Shown here: positions 54,061 to 63,563 of the stretch, piece after piece
Numbering within the stretch: position 1 is the first letter of the stretch
Layout: every line of letters starts with the position of its first letter
Virus record (IMG/VR): IMGVR_UViG_2806310948_000001
Coordinates: 1-64,000 of that record
From: a virus
Taxonomy: Duplodnaviria > Caudoviricetes
Length of the DNA: 64,000 bases
Direction: 5' to 3' (one strand)
Notes under the pieces: generated by a model
Told to the model about the DNA's origin: nothing
Databases searched by the model: none
Seen by the model: only the letters and a program-made list of their open reading frames with translations
Made by a program: the position numbers and the translations under genes

Positions 54061-54819
54061 ATGCATATAGATAATATTGATCTGGAACATTTTCCTACGA
54101 ATGAGGTTGCTCAGAGGCTCCTGACGTATGTGACAAGAGGCTGGTACGATAAATCGTATGTTGGAAAATGGATATACGAGGTTATCGGACTGGAGTTGGA
54201 GACTGCAAGCAGGAGGATTGACGAAGCACAGAAGCAGGCGTTTCCGGAAACAGCTGCATGGGGAATGTATCTTCACGAGTTTATGTATGGAATACCTATC
54301 GACAGAACAAAAGACATTGATGATCGCCGAAAAGCAGTCGTGAATCGACGCGATAGGACGACCAGATCGTCCATTACGCCTTATAGGCTCGAGAACATTA
54401 TACAGACCGTATTTGGGCTTTCTGCGAGCGTCTCGGAGCAGGTAGAGAAGTATGTGTTTGGTATCGACCTGTTGATCGGAGCAGATTATCCGATATATTC
54501 CGTCGATGTTTTGCTGGAATATATCCGAAAAATAAAACCATCCCATCTGTCAATGCAGGCTCGATATGTTATTGAAGCCGCAATATGCAGTGAGAGGGAA
54601 AGAGTTCTATTCCCAGCGTTAGACATAGGAATGCAGCATGTCTGGACAGAAAGATTTTCTGTACCATCGGTTGAAGTTAAATGTGAAATAACAGAAAAAC
54701 TTCCGGTTGGAATGACCGGGAATGTTATGATCTACAAGAATCTCAATCAGTGGAATGGAGAGTACAAATGGGATGGAACGATAAAATTTGATACAGAAGT
54801 AACAACGGAGGAATTGTGA
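54061..54819 (+). CDS. XkdU/YmfQ-like (DUF2313) baseplate protein
   Basis: FPETAAWG, IRKIKPSHL. Confidence 0.8.
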   Translation: MHIDNIDLEHFPTNEVAQRLLTYVTRGWYDKSYVGKWIYEVIGLELETASRRIDEAQKQAFPETAAWGMYLHEFMYGIPIDRTKDIDDRRKAVVNRRDRTTRSSITPYRLENIIQTVFGLSASVSEQVEKYVFGIDLLIGADYPIYSVDVLLEYIRKIKPSHLSMQARYVIEAAICSERERVLFPALDIGMQHVWTERFSVPSVEVKCEITEKLPVGMTGNVMIYKNLNQWNGEYKWDGTIKFDTEVTTEEL

Positions 54820-55190
54820 TGGAAGGAAAGGTAACAGTAGTAGGAAGGACGAAAATCCTGAGAGCCAGAGCCGGAGAGATCACTCTGCCTAAGATTGTAG
54901 GATTTGCGTTTGGAAGTGGCGGCTCGAATGGTTCAACAGTTCTTAGTCCGGGAGAAACATTGAAAAATGAATTTCTTCGAAAAGCGGTAGATGGACATAC
55001 GCTTAAAACCAATGAAAACAAGTGCGAATATTATTGCACATTAAATGGATCTGAAGCCAACGGAAAGAGCATAAGTGAAATCGGATTGTATGACTCTGAA
55101 GGAGACATCATCATGATTGCTAATTTTCTTCCAAAAGGTAAAGATTCGAATGTATCAATGAGATTTGAAATTGATGATGTTTTACAGTAA
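54816..55190 (+). CDS. Phage tail-collar fibre protein
   Basis: ISEIGLYDSEGD; position after the baseplate. Confidence 0.75.
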   Translation: MMEGKVTVVGRTKILRARAGEITLPKIVGFAFGSGGSNGSTVLSPGETLKNEFLRKAVDGHTLKTNENKCEYYCTLNGSEANGKSISEIGLYDSEGDIIMIANFLPKGKDSNVSMRFEIDDVLQ

Positions 55191-55204
55191 GGAGATGATT
55201 ATAT

Positions 55205-55807
55205 ATGGCGAACGTGGTTATCCCGGAGAATCCGGAGTTCAATGAAGCTTTGAGAATCATCGAGACAGAGGATCTGGTTCATGCGAATGTAGTAAATCCT
55301 ATGTTTAGGACATTACTGCTTAATACTATATATCTCGAACGACGGGTAGCAAAGATGATCGAACGGATTGACACACTTGCGATTGACAATACCTATGGAG
55401 GACCAGAGCTGTCGGCGGATGCAAATATCGTAGATGCAAGCGCGCAGTTCAGCGTTATCAGGAAAACGTCGTCGACAGCATCAGTACAGACACTGTTTCA
55501 AAAAGCAATCGATAGTCTCAGAAAAGGACTCTATAGCTTGTTGATTAGAGTGAAAGTGAACTCAAATTCAAATAACGGCGGGCTAATCGAATTAAATGTA
55601 ACGTCTGGCGGAGCGATATTGGAAACCAGAACTATTACTGCAAATATGTTTGAAAGAGCAGGAGTTTATCAGACGTTTGGACTTAATGTTGAATTGAATG
55701 ATACGGTTACTATTACTGCGAGATTGCTGAAAAATAGCGCAAATATAACGGTGTCCGTTGATTATGTCATGCTTCAGCCGGCTCAGACAGCAATCACGAG
55801 TTTGTAG
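55205..55807 (+). CDS. Short tail-fibre-like protein with beta-rich C-terminal domain
   Basis: DLVHANVVN...LLNTIYL fibre-type N-terminus; beta-strand-rich C-terminus. Confidence 0.55.
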   Translation: MANVVIPENPEFNEALRIIETEDLVHANVVNPMFRTLLLNTIYLERRVAKMIERIDTLAIDNTYGGPELSADANIVDASAQFSVIRKTSSTASVQTLFQKAIDSLRKGLYSLLIRVKVNSNSNNGGLIELNVTSGGAILETRTITANMFERAGVYQTFGLNVELNDTVTITARLLKNSANITVSVDYVMLQPAQTAITSL

Positions 55808-55818
55808 GCGGTGGCTAT

Positions 55819-56349
55819 ATGATATCAGCAGAGAGACTTGTAGAATTGCGGGCAAAAGTAAAAAAAGAAATGGCAAGGAGAAGCTGTGTGGAGCATGGTT
55901 CAAGCGCTTCAATGAATAAATTTGCTGCAAATTATGATTATAATGTTGTTCCGGTCACTGGGGGAGACATTACAGATGAACATATACAAAAGGTTATTGA
56001 TCCGCTGCTTAATGTAGCGGATTTTTTGCAGAATAACAGCCTGCAACAGAGTCATAGTGGAGCAGATGTGATCGTCGATCAGGCGGAGAAATTTGTTGAT
56101 ACCCTTGCAAAAATAGATAAGCAGGCAAGTGATAGTGGGTGCAGAGGACTCTGTACGGGGTTATGTGTAGGTTCTTGCACATCTGGCTGTCAGGGATGCA
56201 CTGGGTGTACTGGTGGTTGCGATACCACTTGCGCAAAGAGTTGTTCAGATGGCTGTTCTACATCCTGCGGTGGTTGTTCAGATGGCTGTTTTTCTGGATG
56301 CACACATACCTGTGGTTCCGGATGTACAACCGGCGCGATGACTACATAA
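55819..56349 (+). CDS. Cys-repeat protein A (N-terminal domain plus 17-Cys CXXX tail); candidate radical SAM substrate
   Basis: GCRGLCTGLCVGSCTSGCQGCTGC...; adjacent to the radical SAM gene. Confidence 0.8.
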   Translation: MISAERLVELRAKVKKEMARRSCVEHGSSASMNKFAANYDYNVVPVTGGDITDEHIQKVIDPLLNVADFLQNNSLQQSHSGADVIVDQAEKFVDTLAKIDKQASDSGCRGLCTGLCVGSCTSGCQGCTGCTGGCDTTCAKSCSDGCSTSCGGCSDGCFSGCTHTCGSGCTTGAMTT

Positions 56350-56367
56350 TGAGAGGAGGTGATATCT

Positions 56368-57156
56368 ATGGCGTGTTCAAAAGGATGTGGAACGAGTTGT
56401 GCAACGAGCTGTAAGTCCACAGCGTCTGGCAACTGCGGCGGATGCGGGACTTCTTGTTCACGAAATTGCAGTACGATATGCTCAGGTACCTGCTCTGGTA
56501 CTTGTAACAAAACATGCACAAAGCAGTGCAATCATAATTGTTCGGATGAATGCACTGGATGTCAACGGACATGCGCAGATGATTGCGAGGCAGGATGCAA
56601 AACGGATTGCCTTCAGACCTGCACAGCGAATTGTTCAGACACTTGCGCAGACTGCACAGGTGGATGTGGAAACAGTTGCTTTGCGACATGCGCTGATGAC
56701 TGCACAGGTGGATGCAAAGGCGGTTGCAACACGACATGCACAGCGAATTGTATGAACGACTGCAATACCTGGTGCGAAGGAGGATGTTATTCTTCATGCA
56801 CATGGACTTGCGAAGGATGCAGTAATACTTGCACTGGTACCTGCTCCGGTACCTGTTCTGGTACCTGTTCTGGTACCTGTTCTGGTACTTGTCAGGGTTG
56901 TGATAATAAGTGCACAGCTTCCTGTGCTCAGTCTTGTACTGGTTGTAGCGGCTGTTCGGGTTGTGGAAATTCCTGTGGTTCCGGATGCACAGATAGCTGC
57001 ATGGGAACCTGCAAAAGCAATTGTTCTGGAGGCTGCGGAACCAGCTGCGGAGGATGCTCTACATCCTGTGCATCAAGCTGTCAGAGTGATTGTGGCGGGA
57101 CCTGCAGGAATCAGTGCTACGGACAGGCGACTACACCGATATATTCATTTAATTAG
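56368..57156 (+). CDS. Cys-repeat protein B (about 64 Cys in 262 aa, CXXX/CXX periodicity); candidate radical SAM substrate
   Basis: GAGGAGG RBS; continuous C-x3-C repeats rich in S/G/T. Confidence 0.85.
   Translation: MACSKGCGTSCATSCKSTASGNCGGCGTSCSRNCSTICSGTCSGTCNKTCTKQCNHNCSDECTGCQRTCADDCEAGCKTDCLQTCTANCSDTCADCTGGCGNSCFATCADDCTGGCKGGCNTTCTANCMNDCNTWCEGGCYSSCTWTCEGCSNTCTGTCSGTCSGTCSGTCSGTCQGCDNKCTASCAQSCTGCSGCSGCGNSCGSGCTDSCMGTCKSNCSGGCGTSCGGCSTSCASSCQSDCGGTCRNQCYGQATTPIYSFN
56836..56892 (+). repeat. 12-bp in-frame tandem repeat (encodes CSGT)
   Basis: GGTACCTGTTCT three times exactly (56848-56883) plus two degenerate flanking units. Confidence 0.9.
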
Positions 57157-57165
57157 GAGGAAAAA

Positions 57166-57495
57166 ATGAGAACAGTAATTATTAAAGTAGACAGCAAAGA
57201 GGCAGAGTACATCGAAAGACTGGACTACGAAAGGGGATTTACTAAAGATGTCCTGCAGAGAATCATCGAATCACATATGGAAGACCCAGATGTAATCAAT
57301 AGCCCGGCATTTAAGGCTTATCAGAAACAGGGAGCGGAATTGGATGCACAGTTCAGCATGGCAGTAGCAGAGCTTGAGAAAAAATATATTCCGGAGATTC
57401 TTAAACATCACAAGACCAAATGGAATCTTGAGTACAAGACAGGAGAACTGAAAGTAGACATTCTGTGCAATTGTGAAATTGAGGGAATCAAATGA
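57166..57495 (+). CDS. Accessory protein of the CXXX-repeat modification system
   Basis: 109 aa between substrate and rSAM; ends KY...WNLEYKTGELKV, resembling CXXX-system accessory proteins (from memory). Confidence 0.6.
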   Translation: MRTVIIKVDSKEAEYIERLDYERGFTKDVLQRIIESHMEDPDVINSPAFKAYQKQGAELDAQFSMAVAELEKKYIPEILKHHKTKWNLEYKTGELKVDILCNCEIEGIK

Positions 57496-58805
57496 AAAGA
57501 ACAGAACAATATTCCGAAAGGCTGAGCAGATTATATCCTGAGCTGCACGAACCGGTAGGGACAGAAAAGATTCTGACTCAGACCGTTACATTTCAGGTCA
57601 CTGATGACTGCAATCTGGCATGCAAGTATTGTTACCAGACACATAAGGGCAAAAAGAAGATGTCGTTTGAAACAGCGAAGAAAATGGTTGATCTTTTACT
57701 GTCTGGAAATAAGGGTGTGGGCGATTACATAAATCCTCAAAAAAGCCCTGGGCTTATCATTGATTTTATTGGTGGGGAACCCCTGCTGGAGATTGAATTA
57801 ATTGACCAGATCTGCAGCTACACGATTAACAGGATGATCGAATTAAACCATCCGTGGCTGACGAGAACGATGTTTTCCATATGTTCGAATGGAGTGTGCT
57901 ACTTCGAACCGGAAGTACAGAGAGTTTTACAGAAATGGAATCAGCGCCTGTCTTTTTCTGTGACTGTTGACGGAAATAAAGAACTTCACGATTCCTGCCG
58001 GGTATTTCCGGATGGGCAGCCATCTTATGATCTGGCAATTTCAGCGGCGAAAGATTGGGTAAACAAAGGTGGATATATGGGTAGCAAGGTTACGATAGCT
58101 CCTGCAAATGTGATGCATGTGTACGATGCAATTACGCACATGATCAATCTTGGATATAACGAGATCAATGCAAACTGCGTCTACGAAGAAGGATGGCAGA
58201 TGATCCATGCAACGGTTTTTTATGACCAGCTGAAGAAGCTTGCAGACTATATCTTGGAACACAATCTTGATATGGAGAATGATTATTACATTTCACTGTT
58301 CGAGGAAAACTTCTTTCACCCGAAGCAGCCTGACGACCTTGAAAACTGGTGCGGTGGAAATGGCGTAATGCTTGCTGTTGATCCAGATGGAATTATCTAT
58401 CCATGTCTGAGATATATGGAAAGCTCTCTGGCGGGGCAGCAGGAACCATATAGTATAGGAGATGTGGATACAGGAATCTGCCAGACGGAATGCGACAGAT
58501 GCCGCGTAGAATGCTTGAAGAAAATTGACAGGAGAACACAGAGCACAGACGAGTGCTTTAACTGTCCTGTCGCAGAAGGCTGTAGTTGGTGTACTGCATA
58601 CAACTATCAGGTGTTCGGTACACCGGATGCAAGAGCAACTTATATTTGCGATATGCACAAAGCACGTGCGCTGGGAAATATTTATTTCTGGAATCACTAT
58701 TATGAGAAAAATAATATCGACAAGCATATGGAGAATCATGTACCGGAAGAATGGGCACTTAACATTATCAGCAAACCTGAATGGGATATGCTGTGCAGTT
58801 TATAA
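57492..58805 (+). CDS. Radical SAM/SPASM peptide maturase, CXXX-repeat target type
   Basis: CNLACKYC (CxxxCxxC), DFIGGEP, SPASM WCGG...DGIIYPC...CFNC...GCSWC...C. Confidence 0.92.
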   Translation: MKRTEQYSERLSRLYPELHEPVGTEKILTQTVTFQVTDDCNLACKYCYQTHKGKKKMSFETAKKMVDLLLSGNKGVGDYINPQKSPGLIIDFIGGEPLLEIELIDQICSYTINRMIELNHPWLTRTMFSICSNGVCYFEPEVQRVLQKWNQRLSFSVTVDGNKELHDSCRVFPDGQPSYDLAISAAKDWVNKGGYMGSKVTIAPANVMHVYDAITHMINLGYNEINANCVYEEGWQMIHATVFYDQLKKLADYILEHNLDMENDYYISLFEENFFHPKQPDDLENWCGGNGVMLAVDPDGIIYPCLRYMESSLAGQQEPYSIGDVDTGICQTECDRCRVECLKKIDRRTQSTDECFNCPVAEGCSWCTAYNYQVFGTPDARATYICDMHKARALGNIYFWNHYYEKNNIDKHMENHVPEEWALNIISKPEWDMLCSL

Positions 58806-58875: not shown

Positions 58876-59598
58876 ATGATAAAACAAGAAGTTATCTTTA
58901 ATGTCAAAAACCTCAAGATTTCAAAAACGGAGAATATTTTCGCAACAGAAGGCATCAAAAATGTGTTTACGGCAGTATTTCAGTTTCATTCTACGGATTG
59001 GGATGGGCTGGCAAAAACAGCTGTGTTTGAAAACGCAGAAGGAACGAAAGAGCCAAAGCTGTTAGAAGAAGACAGATGTGATATCCCGGATAGCTTTTTT
59101 AAGACTTCCGGGGTTTGCTATGTTTCTGTAATGGCAGGAAACTTCATGGTAACAAATAAAGTTGCCATTATCGTAGTCAATGCCGGCTATACTTCTGGCG
59201 ATACCGTAGCGGAAGCTAAGAACTACTTTGAACAGATTCTCAGATATTTTGACGCAACAAATATGAATGTCCAGAAATACGGAAAGCTGGCTGAGAGATT
59301 CGCTGTCGGATTGGCAGAAGATCCGGAGAGCCTTATGGATAACGCAAAATATTATGCACATCAGGCAGAACAGGCGGTAATGGGAATCCCTGGACAGGTG
59401 GAAGATGCGAAGAATGATATCGATGCTTATGTAAAAGAAAAGGAAGCTGATCTGAAAGGCGAGGATGGAAATGTGTGCTTTGTCGAGTTTCGCATTGAGC
59501 CACCTTGCTTGTATATGCGGAATAATCCGGATGAAACAGACATAGAGTTCCGACTAAACGGTTCAAAATTGGAATACAAATGGAGGGAAAGAGGTTAA
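58876..59598 (+). CDS. BppU-like upper baseplate/fibre adaptor protein
   Basis: FQFHSTDWDGLAKTAVF...CDIP pattern. Confidence 0.55.
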   Translation: MIKQEVIFNVKNLKISKTENIFATEGIKNVFTAVFQFHSTDWDGLAKTAVFENAEGTKEPKLLEEDRCDIPDSFFKTSGVCYVSVMAGNFMVTNKVAIIVVNAGYTSGDTVAEAKNYFEQILRYFDATNMNVQKYGKLAERFAVGLAEDPESLMDNAKYYAHQAEQAVMGIPGQVEDAKNDIDAYVKEKEADLKGEDGNVCFVEFRIEPPCLYMRNNPDETDIEFRLNGSKLEYKWRERG

Positions 59599-61881
59599 AT
59601 GGCAAATAGATCAACGGGCAGTGGCCAGTGGACTGACATGGGGAACGTTACACCAAATCCTCGTGGAAGTTATTCTGACGCTGAAACATATAAGTATTTA
59701 GATATGGTGTCATATGGTGGCGGTTCATATCTCTGCTTGCAGGATGATACAATTGGTGTGCGCCCATCTCCTGGTGAAAGTACAGACAGATGGTTCTGTT
59801 CTTCGGTGCCAGGAGAAGCAACCCCAGATTTCAAAAACTTAGTGACAGAAACTAAAGAAGCGGCCAGGACAGCAAAAGAAAAAGCATCTGAGGCGGAGAC
59901 AAGTGCAAAGGCTTCAGAAATAAGTGCACAGGCGGCTTCGAACTCAGCCGGAGCAGCAGCAGCTTCGGCCAGAGATGCGGAGAATGCAAAAGATGTTGTT
60001 GCCGGATACAAAAATGCGGCTGAAAAGGCTGCATCATCCGCTGCTACATCTGAGAAAAATGTAAATGATAAAATTGCTGGACTGGACAATACGTTTTCTG
60101 AAAAGACAACGAGTGCAATAGAAACCATAAACAAATCCGTAGATACAAAAGCGGAGGAGATAAAAAATGAAATAACTGCAACAAAAAATTCTATGGTGGA
60201 TGCGTCTCAGAAAGCTATAAACGACACAATCGATGCGAGAAAAACTGAGATCAATAATACAGGTGCATCTGAAATTAAAAATGTACAGGCTGAATCAGCA
60301 ACACAGACACAGGGGATTAAAAGCGTAGCAGCTGAGCAGCTGGCAGCTATTAATGCAGCTGGTGGCACTTTAGAGAGTGCAATTGAGCGCTACTATGCTA
60401 TGCGCCGTACGAGAGAAATCTATACGGTAGAAGACCTTGATCCGGATGTTACACAGGCCTGCACGGTAAATCGTTTAGATGCTCTGTCTGGTCTTACCTG
60501 CACACCGTCCACAAATACGACAGCTGGAGAAGACCAAATTGGAACTCTCGAAGCATTCCGCCCGATTGAAGTGAACTGGATCCTCGATGATGATGGAAAC
60601 CAGAAAATTACTGCAATTGAAGGAATGCCGGGATATAAGACGACAGGAAAAGTCAATCGTGGAATCATGAACATGGGACTTTATTACAAAAAAGAGCGAA
60701 ATGCAGAAGATAATGGTTGGCTACATCATTGGTCCATGCTTCCTCGAAAAGAAGAAGGATATGTTCCGATGAAAGAATGTGTTCGTCCAGACAATACGGT
60801 GCAGGGATGGATGCTCCATCCTAAAGGAGCGGCAGTGGATATTGATGGTGTTCCATATGTAACCAACGGAAAACCAGTCAGAAACAAACCTTCGTATGCA
60901 AATTTTGCATATGCACGAAAACAGGGGCCGGCATACTGCTTTGAAACAGATGTGGATGCTGCATGGGTTCTGGCGTTGACAATGATTAAGTACGGAACAA
61001 AGGACCTGCAGGCCTATATGAGAGGATGCACATCTTACAGTTATCAGTATAATGTTGCGGTTGCTGAAGAGAATACAAAGAGAGTAATTCTCACAAAAGA
61101 TCAGGCGAATGATTTTGTTGTTGGTTCATTTGTTAGTGTTGGAAATCCAGGTTCAAATACGAACTATGATCGATATTATGCTTACATGCATAATATCGTT
61201 GATAGCGTAAAAATCACGGCGATTGAAGCTGTGGATGAAACACATAGTGCATTGGTACTGGATGTTGCAGTACCTTTTACGACGGAAACAAGTTACAAGG
61301 TAAGTACAATGCATTGGGAGACAGGATCCACTGATTCCGTACAGGGTTACGATGGAAGCCCAGTATCCAATACAGATGGAAAGAATATCTGCAAGATTAA
61401 TGGCATCGAGATTCTTCCGGGTGGATATTCTGTGTCCGGAAACTCTATGCATATTGTTTCAACAGATGCAGATGGCAATACAGTCGATAAGTATTATCGA
61501 ACCAATAATGCTAAGTTACTGACGACCAATTTAGATACGATCATAAGTACCTATGAAGAAGTGGGTATCTTACCGGAGGCATACGATGCATGGAAGTATG
61601 TAAAAGGACAGCTTGTGGACTTTGGTAAAGGGACAATGATTCCGACTGAATGGGGAGGAGGCGATAAGGCTTGGTGGGCTGATGCTTGGTATTGCGGTGG
61701 AAAACCTGCGGCTGGAACAAGAACAGGCCGGGAGCTCCTCCGGCGCGGCGGTCTGAACGCTGGCGGCGTGAACGGCCCGTCGTGCGTGGGTGGCCTCAAT
61801 GGCCTGGCGGATGCCTGGTGGGGCATCCTCGCGACCCTTTCTCCTAACGCCGTACGGGGTGAATGGCAGGCGGCAGCCTGA
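59599..61881 (+). CDS. Tail fibre / receptor-binding protein, DGR target
   Basis: Ala-rich coiled stalk; C-terminal domain carries the variable repeat (RGG...G..GPSC...WW.ILA, C-type lectin-fold-like end). Confidence 0.85.
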   Translation: MANRSTGSGQWTDMGNVTPNPRGSYSDAETYKYLDMVSYGGGSYLCLQDDTIGVRPSPGESTDRWFCSSVPGEATPDFKNLVTETKEAARTAKEKASEAETSAKASEISAQAASNSAGAAAASARDAENAKDVVAGYKNAAEKAASSAATSEKNVNDKIAGLDNTFSEKTTSAIETINKSVDTKAEEIKNEITATKNSMVDASQKAINDTIDARKTEINNTGASEIKNVQAESATQTQGIKSVAAEQLAAINAAGGTLESAIERYYAMRRTREIYTVEDLDPDVTQACTVNRLDALSGLTCTPSTNTTAGEDQIGTLEAFRPIEVNWILDDDGNQKITAIEGMPGYKTTGKVNRGIMNMGLYYKKERNAEDNGWLHHWSMLPRKEEGYVPMKECVRPDNTVQGWMLHPKGAAVDIDGVPYVTNGKPVRNKPSYANFAYARKQGPAYCFETDVDAAWVLALTMIKYGTKDLQAYMRGCTSYSYQYNVAVAEENTKRVILTKDQANDFVVGSFVSVGNPGSNTNYDRYYAYMHNIVDSVKITAIEAVDETHSALVLDVAVPFTTETSYKVSTMHWETGSTDSVQGYDGSPVSNTDGKNICKINGIEILPGGYSVSGNSMHIVSTDADGNTVDKYYRTNNAKLLTTNLDTIISTYEEVGILPEAYDAWKYVKGQLVDFGKGTMIPTEWGGGDKAWWADAWYCGGKPAAGTRTGRELLRRGGLNAGGVNGPSCVGGLNGLADAWWGILATLSPNAVRGEWQAAA
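61728..61842 (+). repeat. DGR variable repeat (VR)
   Basis: 115-bp ungapped match to TR; all 15 differences are at TR adenines. Confidence 0.97.
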
Positions 61882-61961: not shown

Positions 61962-62076
61962 CCGGGAGCTCCTCCGGCGCGGCAATCTGAACAATGGCGG
62001 CATGAACGGCCCGTCGTGCGTGAATGGCAACAATGGCCTGACGAATGCCTGGTGGAACATCCTCGCGACAATTTCT
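61962..62076 (+). ncRNA. DGR template repeat (TR)
   Basis: Intergenic copy with 25 adenines including 9 AAY codons in the target frame; upstream of the RT. Confidence 0.97.
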
Positions 62077-62285: not shown

Positions 62286-63563
62286 ATGAAGAAATGCTGC
62301 AAGAATGTAAATATTTTAGCAGATGATTTTATTGAAGATTCAATTTATGAAGCACTTGACGAAAAATGGAAACGGTCAGATGTGGCAAAGTATCTGCATG
62401 GTCGCACAAGCTCAATGAGTTTGCAGGCTATGAAACGATTGCTTCGGAACACAGACGAAAGAGATCTCATGGTATCTGGTCTGGTCCATACAGTTGCAGA
62501 AAGCCTGCGCTATGAAATCCAGAACCGGTGTTTGAAAGTAGAACCTATTCAATACAGTTGGAGACAAGATGGGGTCAATGGAAAAATCCGAGAAATCGGT
62601 GTAGAAAGCGTAAAACAGCTGATTTTGGATGAAATAGCCAGTGAAGGTTTGGATGAACTCTGGAGGCGAAAGCTGGGATACCATCAGTACGCAAGCATTA
62701 AGGGAAAAGGACAGCTCGGCGGAAAGAAAGCAATAGAGCACCAGATCCGGAAGAAATACAGCATGTCTCGGTACGCTTGGAAAGGTGACGTAAAAAAGTG
62801 CTATCCATCTGTAGATACCCGCAAGCTAAAAAGAATGCTGGAACATGATGTAAAAAATGAAGTCCTGCTATATCTTGTATATTTCTTAATAGGAACCTAC
62901 AAGCAGGGACTTAATATAGGATCAGGATTATCCCAGTTTCTCTGTAATTACTATCTTGCGAAAGCTTATGTGTATGTTCTTGGCTTACATAAAGTCAGGA
63001 AACACCGTGATGGAGCTACCGAAAGCAAAAGACTTGTATATTTTTGTATCATGTATATGGATGATATTTTGCTCATAGGAGCCCGGGAAGCTGATGTAAA
63101 GAGGGCGGCTCGGGCGTTGGAAAAGTATCTGTTGAAAGAGTACGGACTCACAATAAAACCGGATGCAGACCTATTCCCAATTGATTATCGCATCAAAACC
63201 GGAAATAAATATGAGAATTACAGAGAAAAGGATAAGGCAGAAAGGCGCGGTAAGCCGATTGATATGATGGGTTATGTAATTTATAGGGAACATACAGAAA
63301 TCCGTAATAAGATCTTTCTACGGGCAAGGAAAGCATATTCCGTTGCATGGTACTGTATGAAAAATAAAAAGGAAATCCCGTTACATACCGCCTATAAATG
63401 TACAAGTTATTACGGTTGGTTTAAGCATACCGATTCCAAATATGTCAAAGACAAATATAATATTGATGCTGTTTGCGCAGCTGCAAAAAGGAGGATCAGC
63501 AAACATGCAAAAAGCGAAATATATGGAACGTCAGCCAGAAGTGCGCTGGCAGCCTGTCAATAA
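62286..63563 (+). CDS. DGR reverse transcriptase
   Basis: SIKGKG, GDVKKCYPS, GLNIGSGLSQFLCNYYL, YMDD, DMMGY; adjacent to TR. Confidence 0.93.
   Translation: MKKCCKNVNILADDFIEDSIYEALDEKWKRSDVAKYLHGRTSSMSLQAMKRLLRNTDERDLMVSGLVHTVAESLRYEIQNRCLKVEPIQYSWRQDGVNGKIREIGVESVKQLILDEIASEGLDELWRRKLGYHQYASIKGKGQLGGKKAIEHQIRKKYSMSRYAWKGDVKKCYPSVDTRKLKRMLEHDVKNEVLLYLVYFLIGTYKQGLNIGSGLSQFLCNYYLAKAYVYVLGLHKVRKHRDGATESKRLVYFCIMYMDDILLIGAREADVKRAARALEKYLLKEYGLTIKPDADLFPIDYRIKTGNKYENYREKDKAERRGKPIDMMGYVIYREHTEIRNKIFLRARKAYSVAWYCMKNKKEIPLHTAYKCTSYYGWFKHTDSKYVKDKYNIDAVCAAAKRRISKHAKSEIYGTSARSALAACQ

Follow-up and report, generated by a model that had tools for sequence, protein, structure and literature searches.

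What would two cysteine-ladder proteins and a radical S-adenosylmethionine (SAM) enzyme be doing among the tail genes of a phage? This question is raised by a cassette of four genes, here called A to D (positions 55819-58805), in a stretch of 64,000 nucleotides (nt), referred to below as the window, which is part of a 72-kb IMG/VR provirus record (IMGVR_UViG_2806310948_000001); the same locus is present at 99% identity in the genome of the gut anaerobe Blautia wexlerae. An earlier note on this DNA had proposed that the phage staples or metallates a fibre of its virion with the chemistry of peptides that are made by ribosomes and modified after translation (RiPPs). Judged by its sequence, the cassette is a phage-type version of a bacterial system that is catalogued but unstudied, the CXXX-repeat system. 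Homology and synteny make thioether stapling of a tail-associated protein the best reading of its role, and we give that reading about an even chance of being right.

All four genes lie on the + strand. Gene A (55819-56349) encodes a protein of 176 amino acids (aa) with a predicted helical N-terminal domain and a CXXX tail of 17 Cys, and ends in the double stop TAA TGA. Gene B (56368-57156) encodes 262 aa including 64 Cys, gene C (57166-57495) an accessory protein of 109 aa that is a probable remote homologue of TIGR04116, and gene D (57492-58805) a putative radical SAM/SPASM maturase of 437 aa, the first 4 nt of gene D being also the last 4 of gene C. The tight coupling of the genes reported before, with gaps of 11, 18, 9 and -4 nt, agrees with these coordinates. 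Since the spacer between A and B (56350-56367, + strand) carries a GAGGAGG Shine-Dalgarno sequence 8 nt ahead of the ATG at 56368, B was taken as the 262-aa form starting there and not at the alternative GTG at 56359. A and B share the same frame, and we considered whether they could be a single gene that is broken by a stop or read through; we treat them as two genes because translation of A would stop at TAA TGA, and a separate ribosome-binding site, a strong Shine-Dalgarno sequence with an ATG, is provided for B.

In searches of D against protein families, TIGR04115 was matched with 652.2 bits (cut-off, 350), residues 29-399 of D covering the full model from 1 to 359, and with 652.6 bits in the genome search; phrog_1802 was matched with an E value of 2.6e-89. 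The CxxxCxxC motif of radical SAM enzymes that had been described was found (CNLACKYC, residues 40-47), with seven Cys downstream of it, and ten Cys (C40, C44, C47, C287, C305, C355, C358, C364, C367 and C386) were invariant across 12 homologues of 44-81% identity. The seven downstream residues fit a full SPASM motif, and D continues for 51 residues past the last of them. Other scores were those for PapB (NF047865, 175.4 bits; cut-off, 340), the SCIFF maturase (106 bits), QhpD (106 bits), CcpM (99 bits), the CrpC-type family TIGR04463 (60.9 bits, below its cut-off of 525) and the anaerobic sulfatase maturase (48 bits, a weak match); for the families from PapB to TIGR04463, D falls well short of the respective cut-offs. 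All sizeable relatives of D form thioethers between Cys sulphur and carbon, from which we infer that D probably does the same. The closest solved structure was CteB (5WGG/5WHY, E = 1.2e-18), residues 93-441 of which aligned with residues 26-392 of D; because D26 aligns at CteB residue 93, the N-terminal RiPP recognition element (RRE) of CteB is left unmatched, and there is no space for one in D. Homologous loci were fetched from viral contigs (80) and from species-representative genomes (80), of which 84 remained after dereplication at 85% identity of D. In the window A and B lie directly upstream of C and D, and the candidate targets adjoin the enzyme in the same way in most of the 84 loci.

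The regular composition of these candidate targets is their most obvious property. A has 18 Cys, one of them in the N-terminal domain and 17 in the last 70 residues, where the CXXX tail begins at GCRGLCTGLC. B, which has no such domain, consists of CXXX and CXX repeats from residue 3 to 12 residues before its C-terminal end, and Cys makes up 64 of its 262 residues (24%); a recount thus returned the Cys numbers first given for the tail of A and for B. The distance from one Cys to the next in A and B is 4 in 81-84% of the intervals and 3 in 14-19%, a regularity that cannot be put down to chance. In 88% of the CxxxC units of B, Cys is preceded by T, S, G, N or D; small polar residues prevail at this place, and His is absent from the repeat. 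B passed the model TIGR04114/PF27846 with 32.4 bits (cut-off, 20) and matched phrog_6085 (E = 9e-17). A reached 19.6 bits on TIGR04114, marginally below the cut-off of 20, though it carries the same repeat. TIGR04115 and TIGR04114, which the earlier note had named, were both recovered in this way (652 bits for D and 32 bits for B). When the two sequences were read for a hydrophobic N-terminus, none was seen on A or B.

[quoted passage not shown] The conserved core of this N-terminal domain comprises residues ~2-68 (~65 aa), while the fold extends to about residue 110; the core motif, LKAxVKAEMxRR...GS...Y.G..YDF...P..G..I..EH..K...PL, is followed by a variable linker and by the entry motif S.C...CTGLC. 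The domain was present on a Cys-repeat protein in 59 of the 84 loci, at the N-terminus in most and at the C-terminus in five, in which that gene lies downstream of the enzyme. A profile search for the domain among 1.84 billion representatives gave 580 clusters. The best 150 matches consisted of 104 proteins with at least six CxxxC units, 34 fragments shorter than 125 aa and 12 other cases, several of which resemble wrong-frame calls over repeat DNA; within these 150, CXXX-repeat proteins made up 104 of the 116 matches of at least 125 aa. This near-exclusive co-occurrence with CXXX repeats indicates that the domain is specific to this system. Comparison with known folds gave no Foldseek match at E<=0.001, and VIA-align Z scores of up to 6.8 correspond to the background of helical bundles. 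A known tail domain was rejected on these background results, four TssK/IglD rows being a weak lead. The suggestion that the domain docks A on the tail has lost ground accordingly, being set against a domain almost confined to CXXX proteins, placed at either end of them and without a known tail fold; a handle for recognition by the maturase, of the kind described for CrpA/CrpC (PMC13692751), is at least as plausible.

The split of the substrate into a protein with a short ladder (A) and a domain-less protein with a long one (B) recurs in about eight lineages (among them L062, L083, L085, L098, L100, L103 and the close relatives of the window). In the nearest outgroups, there is either one fused protein of 381 aa (L057) or a ladder of B type joined to other domains (L059). 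Across the phage form the substrates range from 140 to 650 aa, with 11-145 Cys, and most of them carry the ~65-aa domain. The largest substrate (650 aa, 145 Cys; L119:5177-7129) is encoded in a metagenome-assembled genome labelled Tenericutes/Mycoplasmatota.

C gave no direct family match at E<=1, TIGR04116 (cut-off, 50 bits) included, and its assignment to this family as a direct member gives way to a more distant relationship. TIGR04116 matched the partner proteins of four bacterial clusters (L150, L152, L156 and L161) with 61-101 bits, and an iterative search with hidden Markov models among the neighbours of D homologues connected C to these bacterial proteins. When 50 phage C proteins were aligned with 10 bacterial TIGR04116 proteins by hhalign, the probability was 97.7% (E = 1.6e-12, 91 columns); by these profile comparisons C is a remote homologue of TIGR04116. 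The AF2 model of C (pLDDT of 96.6) is a long helical hairpin packed against a three-stranded sheet, for which no specific match was found in the PDB, Foldseek and VIA-align returning generic coiled coils (Z up to 7.5). A PqqD-like RRE, which had been considered for C, found no support in this hairpin on a small sheet. Since D lacks an RRE, C is the natural candidate for substrate handling, a role that it may fill.

The bacterial CXXX-repeat system, composed of TIGR04115, TIGR04119, TIGR04116 and TIGR04114/04117/04118, has been defined bioinformatically (NCBIfam). In the literature searched, we found no paper on this system or on its phage version, and TIGR04115 was named once, in an unrelated paper on the pig microbiome. 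Eleven loci of our set are of the bacterial form, which is RiPP-like in the classical sense (L146, L149-L152, L154, L156-L159 and L161), with an enzyme of ~720 aa (711-728). In L150 (7435-12744), TIGR04115 is fused to TIGR04119 (268 bits) in an enzyme of 723 aa, which is accompanied by a TIGR04116 protein, a protease of subtilisin type that is QhpE-like, an ABC exporter and a Cys-repeat peptide of 92 aa; the other long-enzyme loci have a similar partner, genes of ~580 aa and Cys-repeat peptides of 54-92 aa, as assigned by size and position. In a quick tree, the long enzymes and two short ones (L153 and L160) formed one clade, with a value of 100 in the Shimodaira-Hasegawa-like approximate likelihood ratio test (SH-aLRT).

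The phage form resembles this bacterial system in the radical SAM/SPASM family of its enzyme, in the composition of the repeat and in the possession of a homologous partner of ~100 aa. In contrast to the bacterial form, it has no fused TIGR04119, no precursors of 54-92 aa, no protease and no exporter; its enzyme is of ~440 aa, its partner lies beyond the reach of the TIGR04116 model, most of its long substrates have an extra domain, and it is placed in tail or late modules, where the families tallied among its neighbours are those of tail and lysis genes instead of proteases or exporters. The earlier observation that the substrates are longer than RiPP precursors is borne out by this comparison (176 and 262 aa for A and B). 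TIGR04119, a domain of ~210 aa, was found neither in D nor, at E<=1, in the 200-aa protein encoded next to the window's cassette and nine cassette neighbours of 166-219 aa in other loci, so that a separate gene for it in the phage cassette was rejected after ten candidates. In some loci (L074, L097, L120-L122, L125 and L129) a gene for ~166-190 aa, missing from the window, lies between the substrate and the C homologue; the proteins of this kind that were searched had no match in Pfam, PHROG or NCBIfam. On one viral contig (L070:2834-9244), five consecutive Cys-repeat genes encode proteins of 388, 333, 968, 100 and 271 aa, in which there are as many as 104 Cys, and the enzyme downstream of them, of 653 aa, has an extension that is not TIGR04119 and falls in the phage group of the tree.

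The A-B-C-D set, or a form of it with A and B fused, recurs across 90 IMG/VR contigs and many genomes of Bacillota, and is still intact where the identity of D has fallen to 38-44%. TIGR04115 exceeded its cut-off in 2 of 399 genomes drawn evenly from the class of the host, one of the two being the host genome. In the close relatives of the window (L002-L023), the genes A, B, C and D are preceded by the baseplate, tail-collar and 200-aa genes and followed by the 240-aa gene and the target of a diversity-generating retroelement (DGR), in this order. We also scanned the two nearest non-Cys neighbours of at least 150 aa against PHROGs in the 72 dereplicated phage-type loci, of which 65 had usable upstream and 63 usable downstream flanks; the results are tallies of families and not counts per locus. 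Seven of the 25 most frequent PHROGs upstream are nameless, and all the named ones are tail fibre, baseplate, tail collar, tail protein, minor tail protein or virion structural families. On the downstream side, endolysin or amidase families account for 21 of the 25 most frequent, and a tail fibre for one. According to the earlier note, homologues occurring mostly outside phage tail modules would speak against its proposal; the homologous cassettes were found in phage late or tail regions and not among the biosynthetic clusters of bacteria, so that this objection does not arise.

The flanks of the window's cassette showed no gene for a protease, an exporter or immunity, in agreement with what had been noted before; these flanks consist of baseplate, tail collar and unassigned proteins and the DGR target. 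The marks by which a RiPP cluster is usually recognized (a short precursor, a protease and export or immunity functions) are thus lacking from the window cassette. Promoter-like and terminator-like sites around the cassette were not above those in shuffled sequence, and none bracket it; an independent, moron-like transcription was rejected for want of any excess of such sites over shuffled sequence.

Fusions in relatives give a further indication of where the ladders may go. In the nearest outgroup phage (L059, 6703-9204), whose enzyme is 67% identical to D, a protein of 834 aa combines CXXX repeats, over ~200 aa, with two PF12810 domains (E = 5e-90), glycine-rich domains of ALK/LTK type; a gene with the A-type N-terminal domain was not found in this locus. 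Another protein, P0079, consists of the N-terminal domain, an insert of ~200 aa and a ladder of 68 Cys. Its insert matches tail and host-range-adsorption PHROGs (phrog_5499, E = 2.5e-14; phrog_1330, E = 7.8e-12) and, weakly, CBM_4_9 (21 bits, below the gathering score). P0038 and P0074 have additional N-terminal regions of unassigned type. These fusions, few in number and all outside the window, suggest that the ladder travels with surface-binding modules.

Characterized SPASM enzymes provide the nearest chemical precedents. The PapB family scored best for D, after TIGR04115, among those characterized; in the biosynthesis of freyrasin, PapB acts on the six CXXXD motifs of PapA, with acidic residues as acceptors and a leader bound by an RRE (PMC12373016). 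Repeated Cys thioethers on a repeat-bearing substrate would be common to both systems, whereas in A and B position +4 is Cys and acidic residues are scarce, and D is without an RRE. In Methanococcus voltae the SPASM enzyme CrpC sets ranthionine thioethers on CrpA, a whole Cys-rich repeat protein (PMC13692751). This system is like the phage cassette in having an N-terminal recognition domain, no known protease or exporter and a second, paralogous substrate-like protein, and unlike it in the radical SAM family of the enzyme, the 17-residue CXXQ/D units, the RRE and the archaeal chromosomal location. CteB, which acts on CteA (SCIFF), shares with D the architecture of a radical SAM domain and a double-cluster SPASM domain; however, CteB has an N-terminal RRE of ~90 residues and a six-Cys substrate of ~50 aa, whereas D begins ~25 residues ahead of the core. 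QhpD of the QhpD/QhpC/QhpE system forms thioethers in a protein subunit of quinohemoprotein amine dehydrogenase, and the protease of the bacterial CXXX cluster is QhpE-like; D reaches 106 bits on the QhpD model TIGR03906, far below the cut-off of 453, and the substrate and biological setting of QhpD are unrelated.

Taken as a whole, we propose a tentative model, which falls somewhat short of an even chance, in which phages of strictly anaerobic gut Bacillota staple dozens of thioethers into a Cys-ladder protein of the tail fibre or baseplate, where these links replace disulfides, which would not last in reducing surroundings, the substrate being split in this lineage into a co-assembling adaptor (A) and a ladder (B). 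In the wider reading of a stapled tail-associated protein, to which we give about an even chance, the cassette would be expressed together with the tail genes, and D would act on the ladders of A and B to form many non-reducible thioethers of the ranthionine or sactionine type, with neighbouring Thr, Ser, Asn or Asp as acceptors, within the next repeat unit or beyond it. C would be the substrate-handling partner that D, being without an RRE, needs, and the N-terminal domain of A would be a system-specific handle, used for recognition by C and D or for assembly. The product would be neither cleaved nor exported; it would stay in the cell until lysis and then be a component of the virion associated with the tail fibre or baseplate. 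Its presence in the virion is suggested by where the genes lie, by the signals of co-transcription, by the lack of functions for export and by the fusions. Such a product may be a rod or tip of rigid build, resistant to proteases and to reduction, as would suit the anoxic gut.

Several observations weigh against this model. The Cys region of A (residues 115-176) has pLDDT values below 50 in the AF2 model. The model leaves unexplained how B, which lacks the N-terminal domain, would be recognized or attached. Because position +4 is again Cys, the CXXXD rule of PapB cannot apply literally. Among 50,697 phage records, no close homologue was found in a cultured phage, the best matches being uncultured faecal contigs with 38% identity. 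Moreover, the slot between the tail module and the lysis genes houses non-structural accessory genes in many phages.

This last point leads to a different destination for the product, namely an active cassette that makes a large RiPP-like protein, intracellular or released by lysis, with for example an antibacterial, signalling or superinfection function, the N-terminal domain of A serving for leader-like recognition only. The homologous bacterial cluster bears the hallmarks of a secreted RiPP in its protease, ABC exporter and short precursors, and a domain almost confined to CXXX proteins, at either of their ends, is what one would expect of a handle for the maturase and less of an adaptor for virions in general; CrpA is a precedent for a leader-like N-terminal domain on a protein substrate (PMC13692751). 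We consider a non-virion product unlikely, although to be taken seriously, since protease, exporter and signal sequence are all missing from the phage form, its substrates can be as long as 650 aa with 145 Cys, some of them are fused to adhesin-type or tail-type domains, and the cassette keeps a consistent place in the late operon, flanked by fibre genes and lysis genes and lacking separate transcription signals.

Cys ladders could also bind metal or iron-sulphur clusters, as in a metallothionein-like protein or a cluster wire, in which case D would perform other chemistry, such as Cys oxidation of the type carried out by sulfatase maturases, or use the ladder as a scaffold for a cofactor. Metallation was already an option in the earlier note, and proteins that bind metals typically have such a regularly spaced Cys content of 24%; D weakly matches the anaerobic sulfatase maturase (48 bits), and the role of CrpA is suspected to involve metals (PMC13692751). 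The strong relatives of D, however, are all peptide thioether synthases, the residues before Cys are T, S, N, D or G, with no His, and a dedicated partner of substrate type, C, has been retained, so that we regard metal binding as quite improbable. The position of the cassette between fibre genes is compatible, in turn, with A and B being assembly factors or chaperones of the neighbouring fibres, cross-linked in the cell and then discarded, as fibre-assembly genes usually adjoin the fibres that they serve. We found no similarity of A or B to known fibre chaperones, a radical SAM enzyme would be a costly investment in a helper that is thrown away, and the fusion of repeats to adhesin-like domains suggests that the repeats travel with the functional protein; a discarded helper is, in our view, very improbable.

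The genes around the cassette, of which those at 54816-55807 and 58876-61881 are on the + strand, deserve a brief description. Baseplate genes (phrog_6 and phrog_1160) lie further upstream in the window, followed by a tail-collar fibre gene (54816-55190; phrog_1780, E = 6.8e-24) and by the gene for the 200-aa protein (55205-55807), which ends 11 nt ahead of A and has no match in PHROG, Pfam or NCBIfam. The latter is kept beside the cassette in close relatives, and its product is a possible partner of A. Downstream of D, the gene for a 240-aa protein (58876-59598) belongs to phrog_16164; the label BppU-like, which it had been given, was not borne out, as the protein matched only PHROG families without a function and no Pfam family. 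Next to it, and three genes downstream of the cassette, a 760-aa protein (59599-61881) is the target of a complete DGR contained in the window, its C-terminus being the variable region (61728-61842). Comparison of this region with the template repeat (61962-62076), each of 115 nt, showed that all mismatches fall on adenines of the template, as expected of the DGR-targeted neighbour described before; the reverse transcriptase is encoded at 62286-63563.

Distant radical SAM relatives of D (24-26% identity) were also found in cultured jumbo phages of Erwinia, Salmonella and Cronobacter, in one or two adjacent genes. In Erwinia phage vB_EamM_Huxley (L162, NC_031127.1, 133315-144496), two such genes lie near genes for an endolysin, a tail assembly chaperone and virion structural proteins. 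With these phages, a related system could be studied in culture.

Both the family of the enzyme and the repeat of its targets had been catalogued before; what the present comparison adds is the contrast with the bacterial clade, the remote link of C to TIGR04116, the system-specific domain of the substrates, which worldwide is almost confined to them, and the A/B split in this lineage. If the stapling of a tail protein holds true, radical SAM chemistry of the RiPP type would act on a protein of a virus particle, for which we found no case in the literature searched, and there would be a chemical reason for the integrity of tail appendages in the reducing, protease-rich gut. It would also give a first function to the uncharacterized family TIGR04115 and reveal natural enzymes that set tens of thioethers in long proteins. 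A product without a structural role would be a RiPP-like protein of unusual size borne by a phage, which is likewise unstudied. As the cassette is widespread, with 580 clusters for the N-terminal domain and 90 viral contigs for the enzyme, the question bears on a large group of gut phages.

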